Notes under the pieces: model-generated
Told to the model about the DNA's origin: nothing
Seen by the model: the letters and a program-made list of their open reading frames with translations, nothing else
Databases searched by the model: none
NCBI GenBank assembly: GCA_000002445.1
Contig: AE017150.2
Coordinates: forward strand, 448,001 to 512,000
Length of the DNA stretch: 64,000 nucleotides
Direction of reading: 5' to 3'
Origin: Trypanosoma brucei
Taxonomy: Eukaryota
Position numbers and translations under genes: made by a program
Shown here: one piece after another, positions 1 through 25,475 of the stretch
Numbering within the stretch: the stretch's first letter is position 1
How the letters are laid out: each line of letters starts with the position of its first letter

Positions 1-13
1 AGAAAAAGCACAA

Positions 14-32
14 ACACACACACACACACACA
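14..32. repeat. (CA)n dinucleotide microsatellite
   Basis: The run 'cacacacacacacacacaca' is directly visible at the window start. Confidence 0.9.
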
Positions 33-64
33 ATAATAATAGTAATAATAGTAATAATAATAAT
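33..64. repeat. (AAT/AGT)n trinucleotide microsatellite
   Basis: The repeat 'aataataatagtaataatagtaataataataat' is directly visible. Confidence 0.85.
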
Positions 65-97
65 TCGGAGGCTAATGAATGATGATTACTATTATTG

Positions 98-121
98 ATA
101 TATATATATATATATATATAT
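98..121. repeat. (TA)n microsatellite
   Basis: A 'tatatatatata...' run of about 12 units is directly visible. Confidence 0.9.
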
Positions 122-3100: not shown

Positions 3101-4559
3101 AAGAAAAAGAAAAAAAAACAGAAAAAAAAACAAAAAAAAAACAAAAAAAAACAACAAGAAGACAATATAAGATATAAAATATGGAAAAAATGAATTGTGG
3201 AGAAAAAAGAAAAGAAGAGGAGGAATTCAAGTAATTTCGAGGAATGTTGGTAAAAATCGTGTGGTGAACACAACTGCAAAACATAAACCAAAAAAAAAAG
3301 AAAAAAAACATGTTAATAATATACCCGTCACCACCATAAAATAAGAGAACATCGTCATCAACATCAACATCAACAACAACAAAAAAAGAAAAGAGGTTGA
3401 GGCCAATACAATGTAATGGATGGCGATAATTGGATGAATAAAGGGAGAAGGAGGAAAACACACGACACCCACCCACACATACAAACATATAAATAAATAT
3501 AAATATAAATATAACCACAGATAATCGGCGACAAAAAACAAACACACAAACAAACAAAGAAGGTGCGGAAGACAACCACTCTCCGCATCACATCTTAATA
3601 ATATTAATATTATTAATAATATATTATTGTTGTGATATTTTTTTTCAGAGGGTAAATTGAAACAATAACAAACAACAGACAACCACCACAATAACAAAAA
3701 AAAAAAAGGAAAGAACCAGTGGGTTCGTTTCCCTTCCCGTGTTTAATACCCTTTAGAAATATACCAACATCTCCCACATTATTAATTTATAATGCCCTCA
3801 AACAAACACGATGATCGATGCGAGTTGGAGGGCTTGAAAATATTTCTGTTATTTTTCTTAATTATTAAATTTTGAAGAAGAAGAAGGAGGAACAACATAT
3901 GAAAAACATTTAAGAAAGAGAAAGAAAAGAGCCTCCTCCCCCAAATAAAAAAACAAGAGGAAAAAAAAAACAACAACAAAGCAGAGTGGTAAAATTGTCA
4001 CATCGTTAGTTCCTATTCTTTGACATCTTATTCCCTCTTTTTTTCTTTTTCTTTTGTTTTTTTTCCTTTTTAAATACTTTTCTCCGCGTCTATTCATGCT
4101 GTTAAACTTCCTCTGACTTACGGCCACCACAACAACTTCACGCAACTTTCATATGCACACATTTCTATGAACTCAAATAAGTGTAACATTCAACTATTGG
4201 ATGAATATAACCCATCATTTATGTATACGCATGCATATATTTGTGCAGTGAATATGTGGTTAATGCTGCGACGTGGATGTGGACATGAAACGAAATATTG
4301 CCCAAATAATTGCCAAGGTTACGACATGAAGGTATCTCCCATCCACCCCTCCTCTATTTACATTCACACGCACCTAAACAAAAAAAAAAAAAAAGGACAA
4401 ATAAGAAAGAAACAACAACCTTCTCTTCCTCTCCCTATCCTTCTCTTTTTCCTTTTTTTTTCTCTCCATAAAAACAACAATAACGACAAGAAAAATTTCC
4501 TTGTTAATTTGGTTATTAACATGAGATGCCCTCTGATAATTTAATGTTCTCTAAGATTT

Positions 4560-7500: not shown

Positions 7501-8183
7501 GGCCTGCGAAGCTGTGAAAGAAACGGGAATTGCCCCGATGCCCTCGCAAAGTGGAGGTTAAGTGACCTCAGGTCAATACGGGCCATGAACATGGGCACCT
7601 CCGAACCATCCTCTTCATAGTAGCCGGAATCACACCTGTTAACGCGGTTTACACGCCGGAGATCAGTCTTTGAAGGTTGCGTACGGGAATTCTCCACCGC
7701 CACAATCGCCGCACCGGGACATAACGAACTAATGGCAGCTGCTTGCAGAAGCAGTTCGTCAACAATAACAAGCCGGTAGCGCAATTGTGTGTTTTCCACA
7801 CATGAGGCTGGAACTTGAGCCGTTGCGGTTAGGAGAAGTGGCGTGTTATCATAATCTGCGTTGGAGCCTCCGCTAGTACTGTAAGTGCTTTCCTCACTGC
7901 TAAGATAAAAGGACGATACGGTTTCTTCAAGTACAAGTGGCGCTGAAAAGCCCCATGCGCCCATTTCTTCTGCATCACTCACAATTCCCAGCCTCAATTC
8001 ACTAATGGCGGGTGGGACGTAACGATGTTTTTGATGCTCGTGTGTGTGTAGTCCATATTCGGGAGACGTGAAACATTGGTGAAGTGCTGGCGTGGAAAAT
8101 CTTGACAGTTCCGTATTTAATGCACCTGCATTCAGCCCTGTAACTTCAAAAGTAACAGACACACGCTGCACTACGGCGGCCAT
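4560..8183 (-). CDS. Glycerophosphodiester phosphodiesterase (GDPD) domain protein, large, with low-complexity insertions
   Basis: 1207-aa ORF with ATG confirmed at 8181-8183 (plus 'cat'). The GDPD signature is split into an N-terminal part ('GHRGLGKT...VENFSFASNAE' followed by '...ENSLESLNAAHRRGCDMVEFDVMLTRDRVPIVYHD') and C-terminal motifs ('RFDLEVKFP', 'GMKVDAIITD'). A (DN)n run is encoded by an ATCATT hexamer repeat at 4805-4850. Confidence 0.7.
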   Translation of the reverse strand: MAAVVQRVSVTFEVTGLNAGALNTELSRFSTPALHQCFTSPEYGLHTHEHQKHRYVPPAISELRLGIVSDAEEMGAWGFSAPLVLEETVSSFYLSSEESTYSTSGGSNADYDNTPLLLTATAQVPASCVENTQLRYRLVIVDELLLQAAAISSLCPGAAIVAVENSRTQPSKTDLRRVNRVNRCDSGYYEEDGSEVPMFMARIDLRSLNLHFARASGQFPFLSQLRRPNSTDGNPRGAPYLSLSMYGNDPRVRYDRKRWLESLPKKSRDAVLFMEENGWKDTSRSNSPEDQENGDVVNPSTIIEVCDVYPVPSEGCCWCEGHVSSLPPMEQQIRMVKKQLSLQRASERGNASAPTSTTVGNTPSIPSQNTPVAALRKYPSLPSVSCASACDEGLTEDVVTAVTAFTQRGWCVEPLRLADPVAPMTRGAPQHTMRMWHTTVNLALLAGCGLQVEVMLPTPIYGEKERNGGTSVRKPSESASKKNDAQSKGENTESRGAAATGDTPETSTETPPAASEVTECGSSTGVTGIRWLRGFVMLQPPLFEQRTNGTLVMPVCFPEITVDSVSGQPTVTAHWHTLYLQYLLVYPFANPERNTLEIVRSVASRGRLSTKKLVGHRGLGKTYTRGPVEPVENFSFASNAESVVADGASPTKRGAGQRAKVPKLMVKLAENSLESLNAAHRRGCDMVEFDVMLTRDRVPIVYHDPLIQLQARGKRGAGTRNGRVNSFGSPPDEKSVGFGVSPSFIADSPMLQPPPGFESAICAGASTSGKSLRLKEYQMFMRDPPQFSSVPIALHQLTKNQLDVVITETFTHIKAGNRLRNLILQHWHQILRVYRNRVREELACKHANQVVEVAAGFGTCVPCTKECTEKHGSVGGNHAIRGCADINSESGGDDKSNSSTEKCHNHCPSVDDYISAYNKHKRIISQEENVTNRICTLQDLFEGTAPSLRFDLEVKFPFQPIADANLFLQTDSFEVNAFVDDILQVVFAFADQQHSVDDGLGGKTQRFRDVIFSSFEPDVCLALRLKQSRYHVVYLCDTELGDDFKDYRSFGRVEGALQFSILMNLSGISIHAPSLCTDKQLGELKEIQGMAERERGGTFSYPNGKGENTTHDGEDNDNDNDDNGAHVGISGRKMDEFWSNFDCSRGRTIVNYAHGKGQQVWTWGEMNMCERFRAAQSKGMKVDAIITDTVPKWATDGAAHGGMTVST

Positions 8184-8335
8184 GGATATGTGTTAAAGTG
8201 ATTGTAAAATAATGTCTGTTTCCCCCCCTCCAGCTGGCTTACTTGCTTTTTTTGTTGTTTCTGATACGTAATGAGTCTTAATCGCACAAGCAAGCAAGAT
8301 GTAATGTTTTTGGCGAGGTTATGTAAGTCGAATGA

Positions 8336-8349
8336 AAAAAAAAAGAAAC
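8336..8349 (-). promoter_or_regulatory. Polypyrimidine tract (on the minus strand) with the first downstream AG at about 8277; candidate spliced-leader acceptor region for the GDPD gene
   Basis: Plus-strand 'aaaaaaaaaagaaa' is 'tttctttttttttt' on the transcribed strand. The next AG on the minus strand lies about 60 nt downstream. Trypanosomatid trans-splicing uses a polyY tract followed by an AG. Confidence 0.35.
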
Positions 8350-9923
8350 TGATGCGACCAGTCCTTTCTTTTTTTTTTTTTGATTTTTGTCCGGTCCAGC
8401 TTCCTGACTTCACCCAATCTTGCCAGTTTTTGTTGGATGTTAGTTTTTCTCCCGCCTTTCTTTCCTTCTTTCCTTCTTTTTTTTTGTGTGCGGCAGATTA
8501 TTCCTATTAATACACTTTGGTGAAGTGAATGTGACTTACCGCCTGCTTCCCGCTTCCTTCCTTCTTTCCTTCCCACCTGGTGTATATCTGTGTATGTATT
8601 TGTAAAAATATTAAAGAACGGTTTCCTTCGCTACCCTAACAATGTGTACGCCCTGTGTTTTAATAATAAAAAACGGAAATTTGAGCGAGATGTCGAATAA
8701 TATACAAGTACAAATATACATATATACAAAAAGAATATTTGAGGTCAAATCATACGTTTCAGTCAACTTCGGCCTTCAACGCATTAAAAACTCCCGCTAT
8801 CGTTGCTTTGTTCATCATCGGCAACGCTGTTGTTGTTACCGACTGTCGTACACGCAACCTTGTAACAGTTTGAGTTAATTCAATCCAAAGTTAATTCCCT
8901 CCTTTCCCCTCCACTACATCATCACATTTTCCTGTTCAGCAATCAAACCGTAAAAAATAATAATAACAATAACAATAATAATAAGAAACTGAAAGACACT
9001 CGCGCTATTGACAGTCAGCAAAGGGATGCTGGAAGAAAGAATCAGAACCGAACTAAGAGCAAAAAAAAAAAAAAACGGGCACAAACACAAACACACACGA
9101 AAATAATACACGCACAAAAAACTTTTATTGCCTATATATTTATTTTTTTTTATTGTTTTGTTTCTTTTCCTCCTCTTCTCCTCTATTTTCTTTGTTTTTT
9201 CTTCCCCTACGTGGAACCATGCATGAGAGTAACATCCCCAGGGGGTTAGCACGATGTAGTAAAGACAAAAATGAAATTAACGGCAGAGAAAAAGAGGAGG
9301 AGACAAAAAAAAAAAACGAAATGAAAAAGAAAAATAAAGAAAAACAGGAACTACAGCAATAAGAAGGTGCAGCAACAAGAACAACAACAATAACAAAAAA
9401 AAAGAAAAGAGACGAAAAGAAATCATCCTTAGCAATACCCCCGAAAACAGGGTGAATTGGGAGATCACAAAAAAAAAAAACGGAGGGGCGTGGGGGTAAA
9501 AATCGCGACTGGAAGGCGAGGCCAAAATACACCGCAGGTGGAGAGCTGCGGTGCGGCATGTAAAACACCACAAAGCGGGAAAACTCTGCCCCCTTCCAAA
9601 CACCAACACCAACACTAGCAATGACAAAAATGATAATGCAGGAGGAAAGTAATGTTAATGCGAAACAGGCATTTCCTTAGTTTAATTTTCCGTCCCCTTT
9701 CTTTTTCTTTTTTTTTTTTTGCGCCCCCCCCCCCCATAAACCACAAACGCAGACGCCGCCGTGCGTGGTTGAAGCACGCGTCCCAATGCAACAACAACAA
9801 AGAAGGTGGGAGCGAAATCAGAAGGAAACAGCATTACGCTTCAAAAATACGTCACTGCGCACTTATGTTCACACGAATAAATATGCACACGATCCACTAA
9901 ATTCACAAACTCCACACGTTTCC

Positions 9924-11966: not shown

Positions 11967-12654
11967 TATTTTTCTTCCCCCCCTTTACGGCGGTTAAAGG
12001 GGGAAGAGCTAATGGCAAAAGGTAACGGGTCTACACAATTTGCCACAACTTCTCTTTTTATCACACCCTCAACAAAATAAGCGTTGGGGTGTGCGTGCGT
12101 GTGGCCTTGGACCCTCAACACCAACTTCTACTACTACTACTACTATTGTTCACTTTTTACAGCGATTGAGCACTTCCCAGGTGTAACAAAGCAAACTAAA
12201 TCTTTTAGTGGCTCGAAACGCTCCCTGTAAAACGGGGAGAATGTGTGTGGATACGTAGAGTTACAACGGTGCCGATATGGCGGCTAAGTTCGGATGAAAC
12301 AGGTGAATTCGGTTAAAAGTAAAGGAAAAGGAAAAGAAAAAAAACAGGGGGGAAAAAGAGCTCCAGGGTCGGTGGTGGGTATAAAGAACACAAAGAAATA
12401 TTAGCAAGGAACGTGGTTAAACCATCCCTCAACAACGCAGTGATGTGAAACCCGAAAAAGAGTAAGGTAGGGCAGAAATGCAAGTAAAAAGAGAGAGAAA
12501 AAGCATGAACCACCATACCATCCGTCAACCTCACAATGACAGCGCAACGTCAGAACGCGGCTAGTTCAAAGTGACCAAGGGAATGCTCACGCATAAACAA
12601 CAATAGCAGCAGAACACTGCACTTTTCCGCACGAGCAGTACGCACACGTGTATG

Positions 12655-12682
12655 TATGTATGTGTGTGTGTGTGTGTGTGTG
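12655..12682. repeat. (TG)n microsatellite
   Basis: A 'tgtgtgtgtgtgtgtgtgtgtg' run is visible in the intergenic region. Confidence 0.9.
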
Positions 12683-12800
12683 CCGTAAATCAGTGTACGA
12701 GACAAACATTCCCTTGCGGCATCCATTTCCTTCAATCGCTCCCAACAAAATATCACGATTCACGTGCTGTCGCATTGGGGCGCGTATTAAACGTGCGCTA

Positions 12801-15800
12801 CTACCACAATGAGCCCATCCACCCCTTCACTTTGCCATCGAAACGGTTCGACGATGTCGGCTTGGAGGGACTCCCAAGTGCACTACCAACCAGTGCTCCA
12901 GTGCCCCTTTGAAGGGATGTCGCGCTCAACCCACCAATAATACCACTATCGCCTCTCACGCCCACAGCGACGCTACTACTTTTGTTAAAAGCAAACACGG
13001 CCGTCTTGGTTACACCACCATCCACGATATCTGATCCCAATACCTTCGACGGTGTGAATATCAACGGCAGTAGAGGAAAACGGGGCTTCTCTTTTGTGAT
13101 GCTAATGTCGCCGGCAACAGTCCGCTCCCCTTTCAGGGATGTCCGGCTGTCACCAGTTCCCTTTGCAGTCCAAACTTCCTCCAGAGCTTTGGGGTTCCAT
13201 GAGCCAAAAGAGAGAGCCGTCACGCGAAGCAAGCGGTCGCTTGCTTGCAGAAGTAGCGGTGAAATGACTAACCAAGAAGTGGGGTTTACCCAACCTTCAA
13301 TTGTGCGGAGAACGGCGGTAATGGACGGCGTCGGTGCCCGACTGTTGCCGTCGATGGAGAATAAACCTGAAATGTATAATGAATCAAAATAAACTTGAAA
13401 CAGCAGTTCGTCGTTATCACCAGCACTATCGCCACTCTTACCGGCATTTCCGCTTCTATTTACCGCCGCTATCTCTCTTATCCACGGAAGAACCGCGTTA
13501 AGCAGTGCTGACGAGGTTCCGTCAAGTAACTCATTTATGACCATCGGCAGCACCGTGGCACGTAGACGCTTGTTGACACCATTCTTGAACAACATATGCT
13601 GTACCTGGAAAATAAGTTCATTCACATGCGGGGTGACATGTGTCGGGTGCTTAGTAACTTTCTGTGACTCACATTGTACCCCATCAGGTGTGCTGCAGCT
13701 CCAGCAAGTTGCGTACTCGAGCATGAGCTGTTGTCCGTTGATACAAGATGTCCTCTTGTTGGGATCGAGGGTTGTAGCAGAGGAGTTCAGCGGCGTCTTT
13801 GATCTCGCGAAGAGATGCTCGGGCGCGAAAGCGCGGCGGTAGGCATGACGCACACCATCCTCCCACTCGCTGCGTAACAATTTCACCCACGGCGTATGAC
13901 ATGTTACAATGGCCTCACGTAGTTCCATGGGGAGTGTGCTCGCTACATTTCGTGGGGCTGCAACTTCCAGCACCTGCAACAGCACCTCCACCAGCATGGA
14001 AATGCGGTTGAGTGCTGCCATCACCGTCACCTTCGCCTCAAAGCAGTTGCCTTCCACATTCAGCTCCTCCCACTTCTGAAGTTGCCCCGTGTGGTGCTTT
14101 AACAGCTTACGCACCTGTTGCAGGATATTTGTAAACCACTCCCCTACGAGAACAGAGAGTGTGGGGTGCGAGTCAGACCAGGTTCGCTCCACCTCAAAGA
14201 TACGTTGCAACATGGAATACAGCGAGCCGAACTTCAGAGCAGCCGAGGAATCATCATCGACAGCATCGGTGACGCCCTTTTCTGATTTGTCACTTGCTTT
14301 CTCCATAGCCACTGTCCTTTCCTCCTCTCCTTCATCAACGGAGAACAAATTATCATCACTTCCTGCATCTGTCTCCACGGTTTGCATCACCCATCCACCC
14401 TTGTCTTTATTTACGTTCCCACCGGATGCCCGACAGCCCGCCTTAGAGCTAAGATTGGCCGGCAATCTTCCCTCCTTTGGGGTTGTTTTCGATTTTATTG
14501 CAGTGCACTGCATAATACCCCGAGCCAACGCGGCATTCAAATTCTCGCCCTTCTCCGCTGAAGCCACATTTCGTTTATTTTCATCGCCACCCCCAAAAGA
14601 GGAGCACGGGACCATGCACGTCATTTGGTCGGTGTGAAGCAGCCCAAAGGATGTACTTTCGCTGAAGAAGATGGACCGCTGAAGGACTTTCTGGGCAAAT
14701 GTTGTCACGCTGGGCGGTCCCTCTTGTTTCTGCTGTTGGGGTGGCTGCTCTTCGGCGGAGGCGACAACGGTGCTTTTATATCCTTTCCCCTCACTTATAT
14801 GCTTCAGTATAGCGCCGCAAACTCTATCTGCCCTCTTCAATGCCGCTCCAACAGTCTTCAGGAGTGCAGACTCCGTCGCCTGACGAACCGCTTCCCCCCA
14901 CTTGCGTGCGTCAAACAAGTTAACAGCAGCACCCCCAGAAACAGTTAAGTTACTTCCCTCCTGCGCAGATGAGAGCAACATATCCTGAAGCATTTTCCCC
15001 TGCTGGCGAGCAAGGTGCTGTTGAAGTGAAATCGTGCGCGGGTCGTTTAGCAGCCCGGCACCAGACACATGCAACAGCAACTGGAGCGCCAGCTCCTGTA
15101 CAGCTCGCAGTTGGTGTCCCACCTTGCTAAAAACCGCTGTCTCATCACCGCTAACCCCGCTGCACTTCGCAATCTTTTCATTTGAAGAGAAGGAAGAGAA
15201 TCCCCACTGCAATGGAAGAGGATCCAAGATCTGCATCCCGCAAACCTGCCGCATCACTTCGCAGAGATATAGTGTTCGGTGTCGAGACCGTCGCTCACCG
15301 TCTTGGTTCAATCCCACCATGGAAGAAGAGGCATCCAGTGACCCACATTTGGAATCCCCATCCTTTTTCTCACTATCATCTGTTGCCGAGGCAATTGACC
15401 CGCCGCGTTGCGACGCTGAAAGCGCTTCCCGCGCGAGACTCCCACTCATCCTAACAGACTTAGCGCGTCCTGTTCCGGAGGTCTCGTTATCTCCCTCTGT
15501 GTTTGACTCCTGGGAAGTAAGCTTTGAACGAAGCGCAAGAAGCCCCTGCAGTGCGTATCGCCGCCGCTGAGAATCCACGTAGGCGTCCAACTCCCCCGCA
15601 GAAACCTCGTCAGGTTGCTCTCCACCACGGGAACCGTTCGTTCCCCTTCCTTCCCTCGCTGGACCACTCGGTGAGTACAGCACAGAAGCAACGTATAGGA
15701 CAAGATGGGAGAAGAGGTGTTGTGCGCGCTGTACGATGTGCAGTGCCACGGTAGCTTCGCTTACGACCAACCGTGCGTTGACCCTTGCTTCAGTGCTGCT

Positions 15801-17000
15801 GTTTGCATCCTTCGCCAAAGCGGGGACCCTTGGGGCACTTGTTCCCTCGCTTCTTAAGTAAGGCGGAAGCTCCAGGGCTGCCCGCAGCCACTCCATTCTG
15901 CGAAGTGGGCGTAAACTTCTTCCATCGTCAGTGTTAGTGTCTACAGCCGCTGCCTGCGTAAATGACGTTCCCTTCAGTGCAGCCACGACGTGGTCAAGGT
16001 CAGTCTTAATCATATCGTGAATCGTATCGATAAGGAGTAACAGTGCGTCATTCACTGTTGCGTGCGAAAGCACTCCTAAGGCTTTGTGGACCTCCGTCAT
16101 GTGAGCCAGTGCTCGTGATAAATCACTTTTCCAACCTGTTGCCCTACCCATGAATTCAACACCACCTGATGATGTAAACATGTTTGTGGACGATGTCAAG
16201 GATAAGTCCCCACCACCGCTATCATTTCGATTGGCGTTAGCCACACTCAAAGCGCTTTGTGCGGCCTGTTCTGCATCTTCCCGAAGCAGCCCACGCACTG
16301 CACGTTTGAGACGATGTTCATAGGACTCAACAGCCAGCTTTTCATGAGGCTGTTTCCGTTCCCTTCTTATCTGCAAGAGCAGCGCAGCGGCGTCATAAAG
16401 CTTACGGGCACCCAACAATCCCTCCAGAGCCGCGCACTGCTGAGTGTAAATTAACACGTCTCGTTGTCTATCATCTGCCCCCTCACGCCCCCCTCTTGGC
16501 GTTTCTTCACACACACCCTTCAAAGTCGCGGTTGCCTCATGAGGCAACGGGGACCTCACCACCTCGGAAACCGGTGGCGAAGCACTGCTTGAGTGTCCCA
16601 TATGTCGACTCGTTTGAGTTTTCCCTTCTCCCACATTCTTCGCGCGCGGACTTTTACCTCCATGGGGGGATATGGTCCGCAAAACGGGTGACGAGACCCC
16701 CCTTGGGCTCTGCGGCATTGTCAGACGCGACTGTGAATATTGATTCTCCAACTGTTGCTGTTTTTTCTCCTCCTGCATTTGCTTTTGCAGACGCAGCAAC
16801 TTCCTGCATGCCTGTTCTACGACGACCACCTGGTCACAAGCGGCAACGAGGCCCCGGTAGCTTTGGCCGACAAGTTGTTTGAGTCTCTCATCACTTTCTT
16901 GAATGCCTGGTGTTATACGGCTCAGGTAGTCGCGGGCCTGATCCACGCTATTGTTGGTGAAAATGCGTCGCACTTCCTGAATGGCTTCCTCCGATGACAT
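12801..17000 (-). CDS. Large COG1/Vps51-family-like protein (putative conserved oligomeric Golgi complex subunit)
   Basis: The ORF-track start at 17081 is a TTG (plus 'caa'). The first ATG is at 16998-17000, giving 'MSSEEAIQEVRRIFTNNSVDQARDYL...ERLKQLVGQSYRGLVAACDQVV'. This resembles the N-terminal COG1/Vps51 motif (IF..............R..VG..YRDLI.AAD.I). The remaining ~1370 aa are helical and low-complexity. Confidence 0.5.
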   Translation of the reverse strand: MSSEEAIQEVRRIFTNNSVDQARDYLSRITPGIQESDERLKQLVGQSYRGLVAACDQVVVVEQACRKLLRLQKQMQEEKKQQQLENQYSQSRLTMPQSPRGVSSPVLRTISPHGGKSPRAKNVGEGKTQTSRHMGHSSSASPPVSEVVRSPLPHEATATLKGVCEETPRGGREGADDRQRDVLIYTQQCAALEGLLGARKLYDAAALLLQIRRERKQPHEKLAVESYEHRLKRAVRGLLREDAEQAAQSALSVANANRNDSGGGDLSLTSSTNMFTSSGGVEFMGRATGWKSDLSRALAHMTEVHKALGVLSHATVNDALLLLIDTIHDMIKTDLDHVVAALKGTSFTQAAAVDTNTDDGRSLRPLRRMEWLRAALELPPYLRSEGTSAPRVPALAKDANSSTEARVNARLVVSEATVALHIVQRAQHLFSHLVLYVASVLYSPSGPAREGRGTNGSRGGEQPDEVSAGELDAYVDSQRRRYALQGLLALRSKLTSQESNTEGDNETSGTGRAKSVRMSGSLAREALSASQRGGSIASATDDSEKKDGDSKCGSLDASSSMVGLNQDGERRSRHRTLYLCEVMRQVCGMQILDPLPLQWGFSSFSSNEKIAKCSGVSGDETAVFSKVGHQLRAVQELALQLLLHVSGAGLLNDPRTISLQQHLARQQGKMLQDMLLSSAQEGSNLTVSGGAAVNLFDARKWGEAVRQATESALLKTVGAALKRADRVCGAILKHISEGKGYKSTVVASAEEQPPQQQKQEGPPSVTTFAQKVLQRSIFFSESTSFGLLHTDQMTCMVPCSSFGGGDENKRNVASAEKGENLNAALARGIMQCTAIKSKTTPKEGRLPANLSSKAGCRASGGNVNKDKGGWVMQTVETDAGSDDNLFSVDEGEEERTVAMEKASDKSEKGVTDAVDDDSSAALKFGSLYSMLQRIFEVERTWSDSHPTLSVLVGEWFTNILQQVRKLLKHHTGQLQKWEELNVEGNCFEAKVTVMAALNRISMLVEVLLQVLEVAAPRNVASTLPMELREAIVTCHTPWVKLLRSEWEDGVRHAYRRAFAPEHLFARSKTPLNSSATTLDPNKRTSCINGQQLMLEYATCWSCSTPDGVQCESQKVTKHPTHVTPHVNELIFQVQHMLFKNGVNKRLRATVLPMVINELLDGTSSALLNAVLPWIREIAAVNRSGNAGKSGDSAGDNDELLFQVYFDSLYISGLFSIDGNSRAPTPSITAVLRTIEGWVNPTSWLVISPLLLQASDRLLRVTALSFGSWNPKALEEVWTAKGTGDSRTSLKGERTVAGDISITKEKPRFPLLPLIFTPSKVLGSDIVDGGVTKTAVFAFNKSSSVAVGVRGDSGIIGGLSATSLQRGTGALVGSALGSPSKPTSSNRFDGKVKGWMGSLW

Positions 17001-17829
17001 GGCGTGCCGAAAAGCGTGTTGAAAATTTCCTAAGCAACGTTCCCTACGGTTGTCTTGCCTCTTGCGTACTGTTCTTTTCAAACAAAAGAGAAGGACGGCG
17101 CCAGCGAAATATGGCCGATGGTGGAGTATTCCCTCGTTTTCTTCCCTTTTAAACTTGTTGATTTAACTCCCTTTTCTCCCGCAGCACCCGGTACGGGGAC
17201 TATCAGCGACTGTGTTCCTTTGGTCCCCTGCACGGTGTAAGGCCTCCTCTCAGCACTCCCGTTGCAAATCAGAAGCGAAAAGAGGTATGAAGAGGGTTGC
17301 AGTAAGTGATAATAAAGGAATAAGACAGCTAACACGTAAACGGAAGCACGTAGGGGAAGGGAGGAGGTGGGGGAATGAAATCGATGCACGGGTTCCATTT
17401 CGATAGAATTGCGAGAGGAAGTGTTATAGGGTAAAGAAAACAGGCTCTCTTTCAGAGAAAATGCCTGCAAAGGCCACTACGTGTAAAACATGAGAGCGGT
17501 GGAAAAACATTAAAAAAAAATCTTTGACGCAACAGCTGGACTTTTGGTTGCGCTATAAAATATCATACAACCGTGCTGACACCAGCTGGCACGAAGAAAT
17601 AATAGAGTATATGGAAACAAAGGAAGAAGAACCTGGCATGAGCACACACATGCACACGCATAGACACAGAATAGTACTTAAAAACAATAGAAGTATGGTT
17701 AAACAATGAGTGTATGCTTTTATAACTTCTATGCCTTGCGTGACCAGCATTGGTTTGCTAAGCATAAAAAAGAAATGGCATAGTTATCGACAATAAAAAC
17801 ACCACATATCTATATTCATCGTTACGCAG

Positions 17830-20454
17830 CTACAATCCACTGCACACTTCTCCACAGTGGTACCATTTCCAAGGGCTTTTGGCATTCTTTTGCACACAGC
17901 CGAAATCATCTTCTTGAGTGCATATCATTCTGCCACTGCGACTTGAGCGCAACCCAACATGCTGAAGAAACGACTCGCGAGAGCGGCGGGATCCGAGTCC
18001 ATATTTCTCCACGTGTTTAAGCGCCGCTTCCCCGTCACTTCTCAACCCCCGCGCAGCGTTGGATTGGCCAAATAGCACAAAGTTCAAGCGCACCAAACCC
18101 CGCAATCGCGCATCCCTCACTTTAGAGGACATGTTTGCGACTTTGTTATTACCGCTTGTTCCATTCCCGGCACCTTTTGCGTGGACGACAGCTGCAAAAG
18201 CAATGGGCTCAGTCGGGGCGTAAAAATCCCAGCCGTGCGTCCACAACCGCCCCGCAAGTAAAACGGCCTCTTCATCTGGTGTCAGGAAACCCATGTACGG
18301 GTCCAGTGGAACGTGATTCCCAGCATTGCCACTGCTACTATTATTGTGGCTATTTTGGTGGTCTGCTGCGTCATGCGAGAAATCAAAGAAGGCACCTGCG
18401 CGAGTGAAAAGGAAATCTGTGCTTAACCACGGTTGCGAAAGTGACGAAGGAAAGCTTTCCTGTCGCCTGCTTCCAAGGCACACCGCATCATTCTTCTCAT
18501 TACACCAATGGATGGGTAGAGGCTCCATATACCGCCGATCGCGCAGGACATATGTGAGGCGGCGCCTGGACTCATATCTCAATTTGAATTTTGCTCCCTC
18601 TCCCCCCGACACAGTGGCGCTAACGTCCTCCCCATTTTCCACGTTGCCACAACCACTGCTGCCGCCGTCGCTTTTCGCATCGCACACTTTCCGGCAACCT
18701 TCTTCGCTGTGCTGCATCTTTACTGCCACACCACATACGTAGGAGGTGGTGTTTTGTTCACTCATACTTGTCAGCAGTTTCTTACGAAGTGGTTCACGCA
18801 ATTTCTTCATCCAATACAATTGGGCACTATTTGGCATCCGGGTTCTCACATTTGGGATCGAGGCTCCGTTTCGCGGGTAGTTGAGAGGTTCTGCTCCAGA
18901 GGTTGCTTCACCGCCATCTTCCTCTGTGGGAAGTCGGAAAAGGAACTCCACAACATCTTCACTCCCGAATCCTCTGGCGCCTTCCGCAGCACTTTCGCCG
19001 TTTCCATCCCCCTTCTCTTTGTCCTCCATTCCATCGGAACTGTGTAAACGCAGTCCTTCAAGATCGTACAGAGCAGATCCACTCCTTTTCTTTGAAGGAT
19101 TTCTCTCGTGAGCTACGTTGAAGTAATCTTCCGTCCCTCCCCTTTCCTTTCCACGTTGGTCATCACGGAATTGTTGATCCCCATGATCCTTAACCCCTTC
19201 ATGTCTGTGACCTTCATTGCTTACGTGGCGGACCACAACTTCTTCCCATGCGCGATGCACCACATCTCGCTGTATGATGTTTGCCATCTGCGAGAGTATA
19301 GGCCGTCGTGACGGGAGCCTTAGTAGCATGAGCCGCGCTGTCACATCCCATGAGGGCACTAACAACACGCCTGCATTAAGAAACATCACGTATGTTTCGC
19401 CGCGATACAGGGCGAGCGTTGCATACCGCTGGGAGGCAATGGAGGTAAAGTCACTGAGCCCTCCACTTGCATCACTCCCACTTGAAGCATCCCCATCCCT
19501 GTAACCAGCATGCTCGTAGTCGTCCTCAGCTCTTCGACTGCGTGGATTTTCTTTTTTTTCACTCACCTTGACGTTACCTTCGCCTCCACCCATATTGCTT
19601 CCTTTGCTGTGCCTTCGTGACTTAGCCGACACACGCAGTTGCCGCAGCCGTATGTTGTCCCGTGGACAGAATCCATACCGTTCGGCGCACGTGTGAGACT
19701 GATAAGCAACAGGAATACATGGAGACGATGGTGGGAAAGGCCACCGGGACGAGTTGTGACCTCCGCGCCCACCCGATTCCTCAGCCGTCATTACGTCGGG
19801 GAGGAACTCAACGATACCGGTGAAAATAGCAACTGACCAAAGTGCCGATTCATATAAGTTGTGAACTGTCATAGCACACACACTCTCTAGAGAAACAGAC
19901 CTTCTCATACGAACCAGTGGCGTTTCATGGTGCAGAAGACCAACGAAGATACTACCCTCGAGCCCGTAGCCGCGGCGTGCGACATGAGTTGGACTCCAGT
20001 ACGTGTCGGAATGTGTGACATTCTTTATGGAGCCATTGTCCAACCTCTTTTCTAACTCATTGTTGAACTTAGGAAGCTGCGTTTCATAGTATTCCAGCAA
20101 AATGGCCGCGGGCGTTGCATTCGGGGGCAAACCAAACATATCCGTGGCTCCTCCAGCTGCCGCTACTGATGCAGGCATTCCATCAGTTTCCTGGTCCACG
20201 AATGCCGTCAATACTGACAGAAGTTTCGTGGTAAATGAAAAAACCGCTGGCGAGGCCCGCAAGTTTCCGACCCCTGGCAAACCACCCCGAACAGCATGGC
20301 TTCCTTCACCAATGTGGCCACCTCTCATTCTGTTTTTACGCTCGCGCGACATATTATTCCATAACAAGAAGGTAACCATGACTAAGGCTGGGAGCACCAT
20401 ATACATCGGGACGGTTATGCAACGCCGGCCCCGACGCCGTGTTTCTGAGCGCAT
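17830..20454 (-). CDS. Type II membrane GT-A-like glycosyltransferase family protein, paralog A, lacking the DxH motif; I recall this family as GT60-like (Skp1/polypeptide GlcNAc-transferase), but that is memory only
   Basis: The ORF-track start at 20505 is GTG (plus 'cac'). The first ATG at 20452-20454 gives 'MRSETRRRGRRCITVPMYMVLPALVMVTFLLWNN', a basic tail followed by a TM helix. It shares blocks with the ORF at 23226-25475 ('YRGETYVMFLNAGVLLVPSWD' vs 'YRGEDYVLILDSHTRFVYGWD'; 'LWTHGWDFYAPTEP' vs 'LWTHGYDIHSPNRT'). Confidence 0.6.
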   Translation of the reverse strand: MRSETRRRGRRCITVPMYMVLPALVMVTFLLWNNMSRERKNRMRGGHIGEGSHAVRGGLPGVGNLRASPAVFSFTTKLLSVLTAFVDQETDGMPASVAAAGGATDMFGLPPNATPAAILLEYYETQLPKFNNELEKRLDNGSIKNVTHSDTYWSPTHVARRGYGLEGSIFVGLLHHETPLVRMRRSVSLESVCAMTVHNLYESALWSVAIFTGIVEFLPDVMTAEESGGRGGHNSSRWPFPPSSPCIPVAYQSHTCAERYGFCPRDNIRLRQLRVSAKSRRHSKGSNMGGGEGNVKVSEKKENPRSRRAEDDYEHAGYRDGDASSGSDASGGLSDFTSIASQRYATLALYRGETYVMFLNAGVLLVPSWDVTARLMLLRLPSRRPILSQMANIIQRDVVHRAWEEVVVRHVSNEGHRHEGVKDHGDQQFRDDQRGKERGGTEDYFNVAHERNPSKKRSGSALYDLEGLRLHSSDGMEDKEKGDGNGESAAEGARGFGSEDVVEFLFRLPTEEDGGEATSGAEPLNYPRNGASIPNVRTRMPNSAQLYWMKKLREPLRKKLLTSMSEQNTTSYVCGVAVKMQHSEEGCRKVCDAKSDGGSSGCGNVENGEDVSATVSGGEGAKFKLRYESRRRLTYVLRDRRYMEPLPIHWCNEKNDAVCLGSRRQESFPSSLSQPWLSTDFLFTRAGAFFDFSHDAADHQNSHNNSSSGNAGNHVPLDPYMGFLTPDEEAVLLAGRLWTHGWDFYAPTEPIAFAAVVHAKGAGNGTSGNNKVANMSSKVRDARLRGLVRLNFVLFGQSNAARGLRSDGEAALKHVEKYGLGSRRSRESFLQHVGLRSSRSGRMICTQEDDFGCVQKNAKSPWKWYHCGEVCSGL

Positions 20455-21405
20455 GGGTTCGGCTACACTGTTTGAGGCGCTGCGAATTTTTGTGACGCGC
20501 TCCACCGAGCTTACGTCTCGGATTCTCGAGAACCCTTTCTTGCTATGCGCGCGCAGATCCTAGAACTAGGTAAATGAAATGGAAAATAATAATAATAATA
20601 ATAAAAAACGGGAGAAGAAGGTACGACCAAAGGAACAAGAAGGTAAGGAAAGTAAATGGAAAGCCGTTCGGCCGCAAAACAAGCCTAACACAATTTGGAG
20701 GCAGGAAATGATGAAATGCACAAGAAACAGTAGAAGTAAGTGCATCTGGGAGTTATAAATTGGATCATGACGACTTTTCTTTCTTTTCTACCATCTTACA
20801 GATACATGGGAAACACTATCCTAGAGCAGACGTAAAGCCTCGGCGTGTTGGCTCATCTACCCTAAGAACTCTTCATTTCCCCTCTCTCTGTTCCGTGTGC
20901 ACTTCGCCCCATGTCTTTAAAATCAGGAGAGGATCTGGGCTAGTTCCACGGCATTCATTTCCTTCCCTTTTCGTTATCCTCACTTCGTTCGGCGCATATG
21001 CACCTTCTTGACATTCTTCACTAACTATCGGCGCCTCTCCTAAACCACATCACCCTCACAAATGGAAGGAATGCACAACTCACCCTTCAATGCTTTCTAT
21101 CCGGCAACTCAAATTGTGTTTCGCCCCCCCAAATCGGTAAAAGGAAGAAAAGAGTTGGCTCAAACACTCACAAGAAGGAAAGAAAAAAAAGGCGATGATT
21201 AGAATCCTCTCCCCACTCAAAGACTTAACCACGCAAAACGGGGGGAACCGGTCAGGAGGACATAACAAAGAAGTCCACACAGTCAAGGGGAAAAGTGCAA
21301 GGAGAGAGAAAGAGAGCAGCGCATGAAGGTCGGGGAGGGCCGGGCCGCTTCCACACTGAAAGTCGACACGTGACGAATCGGGCGAAAAGCAAAAAAGTAC
21401 CGGAA

Positions 21406-21891
21406 CTATCGACGGCCACCCTTACGCTTTTTATTGCCGCCACCATGCTGCTGCTGCTGCTGCTGCTTCTGCGAGGTATTGCCTTTACCACCACCACTTT
21501 CTGCCGACTTCCCTCCAGATTTGTTGCCACCAGCAGGGACCGTACCATCAGTTTCCTTTCCAGAGGACTTCTGCCGTGGAGATGCGGCATTTATGTTAGG
21601 AACCCCCGTTCCTCCTCCTCCTCCTCCGGTGGCCGCTGAAGGCGGTGGGGCTGTGAGGGAGACGGTGCAGCGGGAGACGAAGTCATGGACGATTTCCTCC
21701 ACAATTTTGAGCTCCCCCTGATTTTTCACACGTGTTGTGAGGGTTGTGCGACCATCGGTGGACTTCAAAACAAACGTCTTGCGTCCGCTCGAAGGCCGCA
21801 CACGCAACATCAAACGCGACTTCTTCACGCCGCTCAGCTCAACCATACGGCGTGTAGCCTTGGCGAAGTCCTTCAGCGGCAGATTAACCAT
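21406..21891 (-). CDS. SRP14: Signal recognition particle 14 kDa protein (SRP14) homolog with polyQ/Gly-rich basic tail
   Basis: 'MVNLPLKDFAKATRRMVELSGVKKSRLMLRV...LKSTDGRTTLTTRVKNQGELKIVEEIV' aligns with SRP14 (MVLLESEQFLTELTRLF...LRATDGKKKISTVVSSKEVNKF). The ORF-track start is GTG. An upstream in-frame ATG (21922-21924) lies before the first AG after the polyY tract, so ATG 21889-21891 is favoured. A (CTG/CAG)n run at 21441-21470 encodes QQQQQQ. Confidence 0.6.
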   Translation of the reverse strand: MVNLPLKDFAKATRRMVELSGVKKSRLMLRVRPSSGRKTFVLKSTDGRTTLTTRVKNQGELKIVEEIVHDFVSRCTVSLTAPPPSAATGGGGGGTGVPNINAASPRQKSSGKETDGTVPAGGNKSGGKSAESGGGKGNTSQKQQQQQQHGGGNKKRKGGRR

Positions 21892-21931
21892 TTCCCCTTC
21901 CCGTGGTTGACTCTTCACCACCATCCAATCC

Positions 21932-21978
21932 AAAAAAAAAGAGAAAAAAGAAAAGGAGATAAAGGAGATAAAGAAAAG
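21932..21978 (-). promoter_or_regulatory. Polypyrimidine tract and candidate SL trans-splice acceptor region upstream of SRP14
   Basis: Plus 'aaaaaaaaagagaaaaaagaaaaggagataaaggagataaagaaaag' is a C/T-only run on the transcribed strand. The first downstream AGs lie at about 21905-21915. Confidence 0.4.
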
Positions 21979-23225
21979 TTGTAAGTGGTAAACGTCAAGG
22001 GCAGAAGCAGTCAGCGAATGTGAAAACGTGGTGTCAATCGTACACACAGCGCATCTTCTTTCCACTTTTTTCCTCTACTCACAGGTCACTCTCGAAATTT
22101 CCCTCCCCCAAACGTCCCGGGTACGCACAAAACGTGATACGGTGTAAAGCATGTGGGATCAGATTGTTCGCGAAATCGTGTTTGCATTTAAATACACACA
22201 CACACATATAAATATAAATATAAATATATATATATACAAGCATATATATTCGTTCGCAAAGTGTGCGTGCGCGTGTGGAAACTCCTTGTTGCTGAGGCCC
22301 TCGTGTGTCTGCCCAGTATAACTTCTGTAACCATTCAAATGAAAAGGAGGTGCACGAAATGACTATGGGTGACGGTGCGAAGACAGGTATCCGGCAACTG
22401 TTGTTGTGATTTTGCTGAGGCAGCAAAGTTTCCCGGTTCCATCCCTTTCATTCACCGGACTACTATTGCAGTAGGATAAAATATACAGTCAACTTCATAG
22501 CGTCCCACGCCAAGTAAATGAAATGATGAGGTGAAGGCCAGCGACTTCACAATGAGGCATAGACGACTGATTGTAGGAGAATACGAATAACAGCACAGCG
22601 GCTATTAAATATAAAAGGGAATAACTTTTTTTTTTTGAATTTGGGGGATAAATATAACACAATAAAACGCTTTTCAACACACCGACAAACTGCACCCAAA
22701 TGCAAGCATGCATACGGTACGAAGAGAGGGTTTCCATCTCGACTGGACTCCTGACCCGTTGTGCTAACGGTTTTCAATCCTTTTCGCCTCTTTTATTCAT
22801 TCATTCATTCGTCTCCTCTCCGATGCCTGTGTTTAGGATGAGTTACGCGGCACTCCTGCGTGTCAATAGGACGAACTGGAGCTGCAACACAAATTATGGG
22901 ATCAATGGCCACCGCAATGATTAAAAGGGGGACGAAGGCAAAGCAAAACAAAACAACAAAACGAGCTGCAAGAAGAAATAAACGCCGCAAACAAGTTCAA
23001 ACAATGTCCCTCAAACTTGTCTTCACCTTCACAACGGTTGTGGACAACTTTGTGTTCGAGCAAAGTGACAGGGAGCGAGCAGCTTCAAAAGTTAAAAAGA
23101 AAAAACTAAACTAATGGGTTTAGGAAAGTTGCACACAAAGGTAAAGTTCGATAAGCGTAAAATGGCGTAAACGATGAACAATGAAGCGTAGAGATGGAGG
23201 AGGAGTCCACCCTAATGGGACCACA

Positions 23226-25475
23226 TTAAATCTTACCTTTGCCACACCATCGGCCATCGAATGTGTAGCGCACAGGATCCAATCCAGCGAATCGGTACCA
23301 GTTCTCCACCGTTCGCACTCGTCCCATACCGTAGCGATCCACGTCGATTGTCACCGCCGGATCTGTCGTATTTACCGGGACTTTTGGTACCGTCTGCCCC
23401 TTTTCTCGTGTCTGTAGCAGACACTGGATGCGCTCCCTCGATCGCAAACGCAAACTGGACCAAAGAGGGTTGTTATTCCACACCTTCGGCTGATCATTAC
23501 GGGTGTACACATGATAACAGATAGTACGGTTGGGGGAGTGGATATCATAGCCATGAGTCCACAGCCGCACGGAATACAACACTTCTTCACCATCGAAGGT
23601 ATTGGGGAGATGAGGATCGAGGGGAACCTCACGCATAATAGAACCTCTAGCGAAGAGAAACCCACCCGCTGCCCATGGCTGTGGCAGCGGTCGACTGACA
23701 TCCGCGTCTGGTTTGCGACCGAAACCCTTAGCGGCATAGCGCAAAACCCGCCCTTGGTGGGAGAATTTGTTAACATTTTCTTCATTAACAAGAATGCCTC
23801 CTAGCCGAACATATCCATCTGATTCAATAAATGAAGCACGACAAAGGTAAACAGTGGTGGTCCGTTCATATGTGAAATTTGAGAGCTCCTTTTCAAATCC
23901 CTCAGGGTAGTGGGAAAGAACAATCCGTGGGTGGCGTAAGTACATATGCATAGCAACTACACGTGAGTCCCAGCCATAAACGAAACGTGTGTGCGAATCC
24001 AGTATAAGAACATAGTCCTCTCCACGGTACAGCAGCATCGTCATGTAACGACCATACGTTGGCCCTCGGGCTGCATCAGGTGCAATGTGCCTTAACCTAA
24101 TGTTGTCCATTGGGAAACACAACACATCACTGAAGGCAGCCCTTGCACTTGCCGTGTCGGATGCAATAGCGGCAGAAGGACAAAGTGTGGGCTGAAACAA
24201 ATCATATGACAGACACGGCGGGTCTGACTTGTTGTGTTGCTCTGCTATACCAACGTACGTACGAAACATGTTTGTCGCGCGGTGCACCACCTGCTGCAAC
24301 GTCGAGTGGCACTCCACGTCTCGAAAACTCGCTACACTCACAAATATGGAGGCTGTATGAGAAGGCGAGAAGGATACGGCGTGCTCTTTAATTTCAGGAT
24401 TCTCAGGACTGCTCCCGCTATGGTTAGACACTTGCGCACCTTCGTATGATTGCTGCAATGACGACTCGAATGGTTCCATCTCTTCTCCATAGTAATCAAG
24501 TGCCATGGTATCGAACCATGCAGCGACCGTGCTAATAGTATCAGGAGAAAAGGATTGCATCCGGTGAAAACGCCGTAGTGGGTAATAAAACCGGCCCTCC
24601 ATTACTGAGGGAGCTGAAATTCTCTTCCGCCTCCACCACAGACGATCAGCAGACGATATGGAACGCGTGGGTTCCTCCTTAGCGAAGAAGGAGAGAAGTT
24701 GCAGGTAGAGAATATCATCAAATGGCTCAAAGGCCTCTACTTCCCCCCTTTCGATATCGTGGCTCCCCGTACTGTCAATGCGCTGTGAGCGATCGTCGTT
24801 ACTTGCACCAAACTTTTCCTTAACAAAAAATGCAGCACGATCTAATCCAACGTCTGGGTCCAGCGTCATGATGTCTTGTATTGTCTCCCGTAAGTCGGCC
24901 AGCACCTCCGCGAAACTACGTTGAGACAGCGAGGTACCGTTGGAGACCCGCGGTTTCTCACTTGCATATTTGGACTTTCCCTGTGGTACCCCGGAGTCAC
25001 CAACATTACCGTTATCACCGGCATTCTCATCATCGCCATGGGTGCTCTTCGAGACGCGTGCTTCCATTGACCGTTGATACGTCGATAAAAATTCCAGTAA
25101 CGCCGTCGCTTCACGATCGGAACCAGTTCGCATTATTGTGTCGTACAACCTGCGTATCTCGAGAAGGGCAGATTTGTCAGGGTCCTCCACAATGTGCGTT
25201 TTTGAAGAGAATGCATCAATTGTTGACCACCCGTCACTTCTTAAGAGGATACACAAAAGCACCACGAACAATACTATGAACAGCAGTATGAGCAGAGCGA
25301 CAACAAAAAGTAAAGCATAAAGCAATGGACTCTCATTGTTGCGTTTCGTGAAGTCCCCAACGGCATCATTGACACCCCTGAAGCTCCGGGCTAAGACACG
25401 GAGGCGACCAGGTTTTTGGGCCGGTGGCAGACGCAACTGATTTTGCCGCCTTGCACCACGCGAGGCATAATGCAT
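23226..25475 (-). CDS. Type II membrane GT-A-like glycosyltransferase family protein, paralog B, retaining the D-S-H motif; I recall this family as GT60-like, from memory only
   Basis: 749-aa ORF with ATG confirmed at 25473-25475. The N-terminus has a hydrophobic TM segment ('LLYALLFVVALLILLFIVLFVVLLCILL'). It carries 'YVLILDSHTRFVYGWD', which I recall as the non-canonical DxH metal-binding motif of GT60-type GlcNAc-transferases (memory only). It also has 'GGFLFARGS...FDGEE...LWTHGYDIHSPN'. Confidence 0.6.
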   Translation of the reverse strand: MHYASRGARRQNQLRLPPAQKPGRLRVLARSFRGVNDAVGDFTKRNNESPLLYALLFVVALLILLFIVLFVVLLCILLRSDGWSTIDAFSSKTHIVEDPDKSALLEIRRLYDTIMRTGSDREATALLEFLSTYQRSMEARVSKSTHGDDENAGDNGNVGDSGVPQGKSKYASEKPRVSNGTSLSQRSFAEVLADLRETIQDIMTLDPDVGLDRAAFFVKEKFGASNDDRSQRIDSTGSHDIERGEVEAFEPFDDILYLQLLSFFAKEEPTRSISSADRLWWRRKRISAPSVMEGRFYYPLRRFHRMQSFSPDTISTVAAWFDTMALDYYGEEMEPFESSLQQSYEGAQVSNHSGSSPENPEIKEHAVSFSPSHTASIFVSVASFRDVECHSTLQQVVHRATNMFRTYVGIAEQHNKSDPPCLSYDLFQPTLCPSAAIASDTASARAAFSDVLCFPMDNIRLRHIAPDAARGPTYGRYMTMLLYRGEDYVLILDSHTRFVYGWDSRVVAMHMYLRHPRIVLSHYPEGFEKELSNFTYERTTTVYLCRASFIESDGYVRLGGILVNEENVNKFSHQGRVLRYAAKGFGRKPDADVSRPLPQPWAAGGFLFARGSIMREVPLDPHLPNTFDGEEVLYSVRLWTHGYDIHSPNRTICYHVYTRNDQPKVWNNNPLWSSLRLRSRERIQCLLQTREKGQTVPKVPVNTTDPAVTIDVDRYGMGRVRTVENWYRFAGLDPVRYTFDGRWCGKGKI

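Follow-up and report, generated by a model that had tools for sequence, protein, structure and literature searches.

A 64,000-nucleotide stretch of Trypanosoma brucei contig AE017150.2 (hereafter the window, in which positions are counted unless a locus of another species is named) carries two paralogous genes of glycosyltransferase family GT60, referred to here as copy A and copy B. According to the reading favored here, which is given a probability of roughly 0.6, copy B is probably an active transferase and copy A is an inactive pseudo-glycosyltransferase, the ortholog of TcOGNTL of Trypanosoma cruzi, with a function in the secretory pathway that is not catalytic. The likeliest such function would be that of a partner, scaffold or chaperone of the active enzyme (OGNT), or that of a substrate- or glycan-binding module. 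Copy A is most likely catalytically inactive because the Asp and His of the DxH motif, a further downstream His and other near-invariant positions have been lost. The inactivity of copy A, the roles of the metal ligands and the Golgi location are proposed from sequence comparison, and the partner role is proposed the most tentatively of all. The initial annotation of this DNA had suggested one active transferase together with a dead or re-purposed paralog, and this is still the best reading of the sequence.

The proposed history would begin with an old duplication of a GT60 gene, before the sampled trypanosomatid lineages diverged. Copy A would then have lost all three predicted metal ligands (Asp, His and the downstream His) as well as near-invariant positions of the nucleotide-binding half, while keeping the C-terminal half of the domain and gaining a block of its own, RRGYG.EGSIFV. 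It would have been kept in the secretory pathway for a task other than catalysis, presumably on the luminal side if it acts as a partner of OGNT. Copy B, in turn, would be a Golgi-type, type II membrane, retaining GT-A transferase of CAZy family GT60.

Copy B and the DxH motif of family GT60

Copy B (23226-25475; every gene and protein feature of the window located in this text lies on the minus strand) encodes a 749-residue type II membrane glycosyltransferase, assigned to GT60 by its Pfam match and its orthologs. Against the 'GlcNAc' profile PF11397, for which the cut-off is 21 bits, it scores 478 bits (E 2.6e-143) and covers profile positions 1-351 of 352. The catalytic domain, by the Pfam limits, spans residues 376-735 (23271-24350). 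Copy A also exceeds the cut-off, with 79.2 bits (E 5e-22) in two partial stretches, and the profile searches therefore place both proteins inside GT60, as had been supposed. Orthologs of copy B share 45-47% identity across Trypanosoma, and several of them are named UDP-GlcNAc:polypeptide N-acetylglucosaminyltransferase (UDP-GlcNAc, uridine diphosphate N-acetylglucosamine).

The equivalent of the DxD motif in copy B is D493-S494-H495, whose codons (23991-23999) translate to DSH. All three residues are invariant in 15 of 15 copy B relatives, a set that comprises sequences from Trypanosoma and Leishmaniinae and three distant proteins of non-kinetoplastid size. In a set of 33 diverse GT60 domains, selected by scanning 1.8 billion representative proteins, the Asp is found in 32, the Ser in 31 and the His in 32. 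The initial annotation had named D-x-H as the metal-binding motif of GT60, and the literature agrees: GT27 and GT60, which are placed together, have DxH where other families have DxD (Taujale et al. 2020, PMC7185993). A candidate for the third metal ligand is H655 (23511-23513), located in ICYHVYTR and conserved in 15/15 copy B relatives and in 29/33 of the diverse domains. Its position and conservation suggest that it may be the C-terminal histidine, or 'C-His', metal ligand of GT-A enzymes. D493, H495 and H655 are thus predicted metal ligands, on the basis of conservation and of analogy with GT27. As a separate observation, a few GT60 domains of ~400-450 residues, otherwise typical, individually lack the His of DSH or the candidate C-His (e.g. 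DSN, or ESH without C-His), and the motif may have been lost more than once within GT60.

The N-terminal signal-anchor region of copy B, LLYALLFVVALLILLFIVLFVVLLCILL (25218-25340), is evident from hydropathy: 23 overlapping windows of 19 residues, starting at residues 46-68, have Kyte-Doolittle values >1.6. This hydrophobic segment (~residues 46-86) is single, N-terminal and preceded by basic residues, which fits a type II signal anchor. The AlphaFold2 model of copy B, built from the 15-sequence alignment, is poor, with a predicted local distance difference test score (pLDDT) of 48.8, and its N-terminal half consists of alternating strands and helices. In this poor model, the D-S-H triplet directly follows a predicted beta-strand (488-493), the last residue of which is the Asp. 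The DxD motif of GT-A enzymes usually sits directly after such a beta-strand. When the same model is submitted to Foldseek, the top hits in the PDB are all GT-A enzymes, including GalNAc-T1 (1xhb), with E-values of ~1e-3 and template modeling scores of 0.13-0.18 normalized by query length and 0.15-0.47 by target length; GalNAc-T4 and T. gondii GalNAc-T3 are also among the hits.

Copy B may be compared with two groups of known enzymes. TcOGNT1 and TcOGNT2, the Golgi UDP-GlcNAc:polypeptide alpha-N-acetylglucosaminyltransferases of CAZy family GT60, are like copy B in the full-length Pfam family, the D-S-H motif and the type II architecture. Copy B shares 45% identity with a T. cruzi protein named UDP-GlcNAc:polypeptide N-acetylglucosaminyltransferase; only one T. 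cruzi cluster was matched, and TcOGNT1 and TcOGNT2 are not told apart by this match. The GT60 family of T. cruzi is named TcOGNT1, TcOGNT2 and TcOGNTL, the last being the third GT60 gene (PMC9472816). In the same source, a review by Duncan and Ferguson, the T. brucei GT60 gene product is called TbOGNT1, the only T. brucei GT60 name given. Unlike the T. cruzi enzymes, copy B belongs to an organism with no known mucin-type O-GlcNAc, and the role of TbOGNT1 is an acknowledged open question (PMC9472816). The second group, the GT27 polypeptide GalNAc-transferases such as GalNAc-T1 (1xhb), are retaining GT-A enzymes with DxH for DxD, as in GT60. They differ from the proteins described here at the level of detectable sequence similarity. 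Searches of the PDB by sequence with copy B alone, with the 15-sequence profile and, at E up to 10, with the 33-sequence catalytic-domain profile gave no glycosyltransferase match, no Pfam lectin domain was matched in either copy A or copy B, and the structural match is weak and comes from a poor model.

Copy B is probably a catalytically competent UDP-sugar:polypeptide transferase, because it keeps both the DxH motif and the downstream His, which are taken to hold Mn2+ and the diphosphate of the UDP-sugar.

Copy A, a divergent paralog without DxH

Copy A (17830-20454) encodes an 874-residue GT60-like protein, recognized by the partial PF11397 match and by profile-profile alignment. Its ATG lies at 20454-20452 and its stop codon at 17832-17830; the open reading frame (ORF) as delimited mechanically reaches a GTG at 20505. 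The coordinates given earlier for both genes hold. The same does not apply in full to their description as a divergent pair: the sequences have indeed diverged, but both genes are on the minus strand in tandem, and a divergently transcribed pair is ruled out.

The relationship between the two proteins is supported by pairwise and profile comparisons. BLASTP of copy A against copy B gives three collinear matches (E 3e-12, 2e-7 and 1e-3). A hhalign comparison of a profile of 14 sequences from copy A and its relatives (the A clade) with the profile of the 33 GT60 domains gives a probability of 99.95% and an E-value of 3e-38 over 320 columns spanning the domain. All blocks that had been quoted as shared are present and aligned: YRGEDYVLILDSHTRFVYGWD of copy B pairs with YRGETYVMFLNAGVLLVPSWD of copy A, GGFLFARG with DFLFTRAG, and LWTHGYD with LWTHGWD. 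By these alignments, copy A is a true but divergent paralog of copy B.

At the position of the motif, 'ILDSHTRF' of copy B pairs with 'FLNAGVLL' of copy A, as first reported from the letters. The residues aligned with D-S-H are N360-A361-G362, whose codons (19369-19377) translate to NAG, and the hhalign consensus of the A clade has r-a-G opposite D-S-H. The changes in copy A are given alike by the joint alignment and by the independent profile-profile alignment. The candidate C-His is also missing: A754 (18193-18195) is aligned with H655 of copy B, and the residues found in this column are A, F, I, I, V, T and V in the A clade of Trypanosoma; the A-clade profile is variable there.

The substitutions extend to further core positions, which are given here in copy B numbering. 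The pair R385-D386, located after the first beta-strand and present in 32/33 and 33/33 GT60 domains, respectively, is replaced by E-E in copy A and by E or Q followed by E in the A clade; it may contribute to nucleotide binding. G629 is changed to E and E631 to A, and Y657, R659, K664, W666 and W672 are all changed, with the loss of the FH.Y.R block. Six of these positions, R385, D386, G629, E631, Y657 and R659, are conserved in 29-33 of the 33 GT60 domains, and all six are replaced in the A clade. Copy A keeps F378, G409, R476, L482, E486, W502-D503, F606, D620, E630, R637, T640-H641-G642, G716, G718 and R721, and its C-terminal half retains the FLF.RAEAFF, LDP, DEE and LWTHGW blocks. No other conserved DxD or DxH is present in copy A: the sole instance, D320-G-D322, falls in an insert specific to T. 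brucei.

Copy A also has features of its own. The block RRGYGLEGSIFV (19942-19977; RRGYG.EGSIFV), which precedes and includes the first beta-strand of the domain, is specific to the A clade and nearly invariant. Its residues R160, R161, G162, Y163, G164, S168, I169, F170 and V171 are invariant in all 14 sequences of the A clade, which range from Trypanosoma to Leishmania and Strigomonas, and copy B has nothing that corresponds to the RRGYG part. The long inserts noticed at the outset are of low complexity: one lies at ~residues 283-337, and a larger one of ~300 residues separates the DxH region from the 'PQPW' block, a region that measures ~100 residues in copy B. At the N-terminus, a hydrophobic signal-anchor region (20356-20424) has its hydropathy peak at residues 11-33, after MRSETRRRGRR. 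This is the single hydrophobic segment of its kind in copy A and fits a type II signal anchor, so that each of the two proteins is consistent with the type II membrane topology originally proposed.

Age of the loss, selection and the possible role of copy A

Orthologs of copy A are found in T. b. gambiense, T. congolense, T. grayi, T. cruzi, T. c. marinkellei, T. conorhini and two T. rangeli strains. At the D-S-H position, the Trypanosoma orthologs carry NDG, RDG, RAG, TAG or AAG, with an invariant Gly. A word-indexed homolog search with the profile added nothing new, and a full hidden Markov model scan of the 1.8 billion representatives retrieved A-clade members outside Trypanosoma. Among the members outside Trypanosoma are proteins of Strigomonas culicis and Leishmania martiniquensis and a Porcisia hertigi gene of 950-973 residues. 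The triplets of the non-Trypanosoma proteins are HAD, HSG, KAG, RSG, TSG, NPG, RPR, RTG and RPG. Neither DxH nor DxD occurs at the aligned position in any A-clade protein examined. Because DxH is missing in every copy A relative examined, from Trypanosoma, Leishmania, Porcisia and Strigomonas, comparison of these sequences indicates that the loss predates the divergence of the sampled trypanosomatid lineages and is not an event of T. brucei. The Strigomonas culicis protein EPY18132.1 ('YVMTVHADTMLV') is a case of its own, with H-A-D in place of D-S-H; this reversed His/Asp pair could conceivably still bind metal.

Copy A is under purifying selection. Between T. cruzi and T. c. marinkellei, the synonymous (dS) and nonsynonymous (dN) divergence of its gene amounts to 0.30 and 0.076, respectively, which gives a dN/dS of 0.26 overall and of 0.06-0.15 over the C-terminal conserved blocks. 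Intact ORFs of 789-874 residues are present in T. brucei, T. b. gambiense, T. cruzi, T. c. marinkellei, T. grayi, T. conorhini and two T. rangeli strains, and A-clade ORFs in other trypanosomatids measure 700-1170 residues. Across the 14 distant A-clade members, 35 columns are invariant.

The two genes are also linked across species. In T. brucei they lie head to tail on the same strand, in one polycistron. The order copy B, small ORF, copy A and Vps51/Exo84_N gene is shared by T. brucei, T. cruzi, T. conorhini, T. rangeli and T. vivax. Porcisia differs: its A-like gene lies directly upstream of the B-like one, with the small ORF's ortholog another ~5 kb upstream. In every examined genome with an A-clade gene, a B-type gene adjoins it or is near. 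This linkage bears on the possibility that copy A is inactive and has a function unrelated to copy B, for example as a lectin-like or structural secretory protein, the adjacency being left over from tandem duplication. Such a function would be in keeping with the invariant RRGYG.EGSIFV block and the very large lineage-specific inserts, and the difference in gene order between Trypanosoma and Porcisia implies that no fixed arrangement is required. Moreover, polycistronic transcription in trypanosomatids makes linkage uninformative. Two points speak for a connection with copy B, neither of them decisive: the constant proximity of a B-type gene, and the fact that the best-known pseudo-glycosyltransferases, such as COSMC, act on active paralogs (PMC7185993). 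An unrelated function is considered unlikely.

A partner role for copy A is favored because of the analogy with COSMC (C1GALT1C1, family GT31) and T-synthase. COSMC is a pseudo-glycosyltransferase that has lost its metal-binding motif and plays a non-catalytic role as chaperone of its active paralog T-synthase (PMC7185993), a GT-A enzyme of the kind that initiates or extends mucin-type O-glycans. It serves here as the working analogy. Copy A shares with it the paralogy to a glycosyltransferase predicted to be active, the loss of catalytic motifs and purifying selection. It differs in that COSMC belongs to another family and has an independent origin, and in that neither DxD nor xED is left in COSMC, whereas E630 of the aligned D-E-E block is still present in copy A. 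Copy A and copy B are connected here by sequence and linkage. A further precedent comes from within the family. According to a review, overexpression of TcOGNT2 inhibits metacyclogenesis independently of catalysis, and therefore non-catalytic roles exist in GT60 (PMC10778605). In its strongest form, the analogy would make copy A an obligatory non-catalytic subunit or chaperone of trypanosomatid OGNT, that is, a COSMC-like partner that evolved independently and is older than the Trypanosoma-Leishmania split. This stronger proposal is speculative and, on balance, doubtful.

The counterpart of copy A in T. cruzi (814 residues, 34% identity) is, within its genome, the divergent protein that matches PF11397; it lies beside the OGNT gene, and the order of the two genes is that seen in T. 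brucei. This protein is presumably the uncharacterized TcOGNTL. The loss of DxH in TcOGNTL may already have been published.

Several points weigh against regarding copy A as an inactive protein with a partner role. The model of copy B is not confident (pLDDT 48.8), so that the ligand roles of D493, H495 and H655 depend on conservation and on the GT27 analogy. The strongest conservation of copy A falls in the half of the domain that we take, from GT27 structures, to make the sugar and acceptor contacts, and this pattern of conservation would also be expected of an active enzyme with altered donor chemistry. Adjacency within a trypanosomatid polycistron implies no functional link, and the conserved linkage is weak evidence. 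GT-A families without DxD or metal also exist: GT14 has been reported with basic side chains in place of DxD and metal, and bacterial GT6 lacks DxD and does not require a metal ion (PMC7185993). Motif loss is therefore no proof that copy A is inactive. Finally, the copy A homologs of T. vivax and T. melophagium shift frame in the variable middle region. The T. vivax locus (12116-14553) contains split copy A ORFs of 375 and 408 residues, and the T. melophagium locus (12968-15509) only a 275-residue ORF. These frame changes could be errors of (long-read) assembly, or they could reflect lineage-specific decay or a dispensable gene.

The main rival explanation builds on the glycosyltransferase precedents and holds that copy A is still an active glycosyltransferase that uses metal-independent chemistry. 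Purifying selection is strong, notably in the C-terminal half of the domain, and E630, D620, R637, T640, H641, G642 and W502-D503 (copy B numbering) are retained. The former Asp position is often basic (listed as R, K, N or H), as in GT14, the Strigomonas protein carries H-A-D at the site, and the orphan O-linkages of T. brucei are still without an assigned transferase (PMC9472816). Nevertheless, the former Asp position is unconserved in the clade (N, R, T, A, H, K), which is unexpected for a new catalytic device, and the former His has become an invariant Gly in Trypanosoma. R385, D386 and the FH.Y.R block, so widely kept in GT60, are replaced too. Metal-independent retaining GT-A enzymes are rare. 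Activity of this kind is consequently regarded as distinctly unlikely.

A different view, which the frame changes would fit, takes copy A for a decaying pseudogene or an artefact of annotation whose likeness to copy B is a mere remnant. The weak and partial Pfam match (79 bits) and the long inserts of low complexity would fit this view as well, and in the Porcisia hertigi gene (locus 5387-6298 and 6305-9226) an in-frame stop near the 5' end parts the ORF of the N-terminal membrane anchor from the rest; this stop could stem from an assembly error or a wrong gene model, or it could mark a real truncation. The intact ORFs of Trypanosoma and of the other trypanosomatids, the dN/dS of 0.26 and the 35 invariant columns all speak against decay. 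On dN/dS and ORF conservation, the decaying-pseudogene reading is ruled out for copy A, and this explanation as a whole is highly improbable.

Intervening gene, genomic setting and significance

Exactly one ORF separates the two genes. It encodes a 161-residue protein (21406-21891) with a Gly/Gln-rich tail and an invariant C-terminal KKRKGGRR, and its N-terminal domain of 76 residues (21664-21891) is conserved, with a mean column identity of 88% in six Trypanosoma species, far above that of either glycosyltransferase. An ortholog is also present in Porcisia. The initial annotation had stated that the pair is separated only by SRP14, a signal recognition particle (SRP) protein. The single intervening ORF agrees with this statement; the name does not, as an SRP9-like protein is the better match. 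No Pfam family was found for the intervening ORF at E up to 10, and neither phmmer nor profile searches of the PDB (E up to 10) gave an SRP14 chain. BLASTP against a hand-entered human SRP14 sequence gave a marginal match of 11/25 identities (E 0.019), and with all four comparisons negative or marginal the SRP14 label was rejected. The T. cruzi ortholog is named 'SRP9 domain-containing protein' in UniRef, and in a hhalign comparison with human SRP9 the alignment covers 57 collinear columns at 26% identity, with an E-value of only 0.039. The protein may tentatively be assigned an SRP9/14-type fold, closest to SRP9. It is worth following because the trypanosome SRP is reported to lack SRP9/14 and to use a tRNA-like RNA instead (PMC8230904, PMC2800229, PMC4231752). 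Such a fold, if correctly assigned, would be at odds with the textbook view that the trypanosome SRP has no Alu-domain proteins, and the intervening gene may interest a different community more than the glycosyltransferase pair.

The minus strand carries all long ORFs of the window, which is the pattern of a trypanosomatid polycistron. The record is taken to be chromosome 2 of T. brucei TREU927. Residue for residue, copy A is identical to XP_951541.1 (Q586L1) and copy B to XP_951543.1 (Q586L3) of T. b. brucei TREU927; both are named 'Glycosyltransferase (GlcNAc)' in UniRef and 'hypothetical protein, conserved' at NCBI. Immediately downstream of copy A lies the gene of a ~1400-residue protein with a Vps51/Exo84/COG1 N-terminal domain (12801-17081), a domain typical of vesicle-tethering complexes. 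This gene adjoins copy A also in T. cruzi, T. rangeli, T. grayi and T. vivax. It belongs, with genes for a GDPD-domain protein, an ankyrin/RING protein, a kinase, RPN6, an FtsJ methyltransferase and porins, to an ordinary housekeeping neighborhood. The porin genes (VDAC-like, PF01459) stand in tandem at 46285-47097 and 47601-48413 and encode 270-residue proteins that are 100% identical. Positions 1-4000 of the window differ in composition, with a GC content of 0.28-0.30 vs ~0.5 elsewhere, a strong A-over-T skew and many A-rich short tandem repeats, and no long ORF was found in this part.

Much of the background to the pair is already known: both genes are annotated, the family has been characterized in T. 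cruzi and the 'L' paralog has been named, so that the paralog itself is no discovery. What is added here is that copy A of T. brucei is a member of a clade without DxH that occurs across trypanosomatids, that this clade also lacks the candidate C-His and other core residues, and that it is under purifying selection with a motif of its own. As the gene family and the 'L' paralog already had names, the gain is incremental, and the surprise for a specialist is moderate to low.

The question matters since in T. cruzi the first step of mucin-type O-glycosylation is the work of GT60 enzymes, and the mucin coat is important for infection. If copy A is a catalytically dead relative that all trypanosomatids share, it would drop out as a second candidate transferase for the orphan linkages; it would instead be a specific candidate partner or regulator of OGNT, and the RRGYG.EGSIFV block would provide a handle for mutagenesis. 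If copy A were, beyond this, an obligatory partner, the initiation of O-glycans would depend on a pair of two proteins, an enzyme and a pseudoenzyme.

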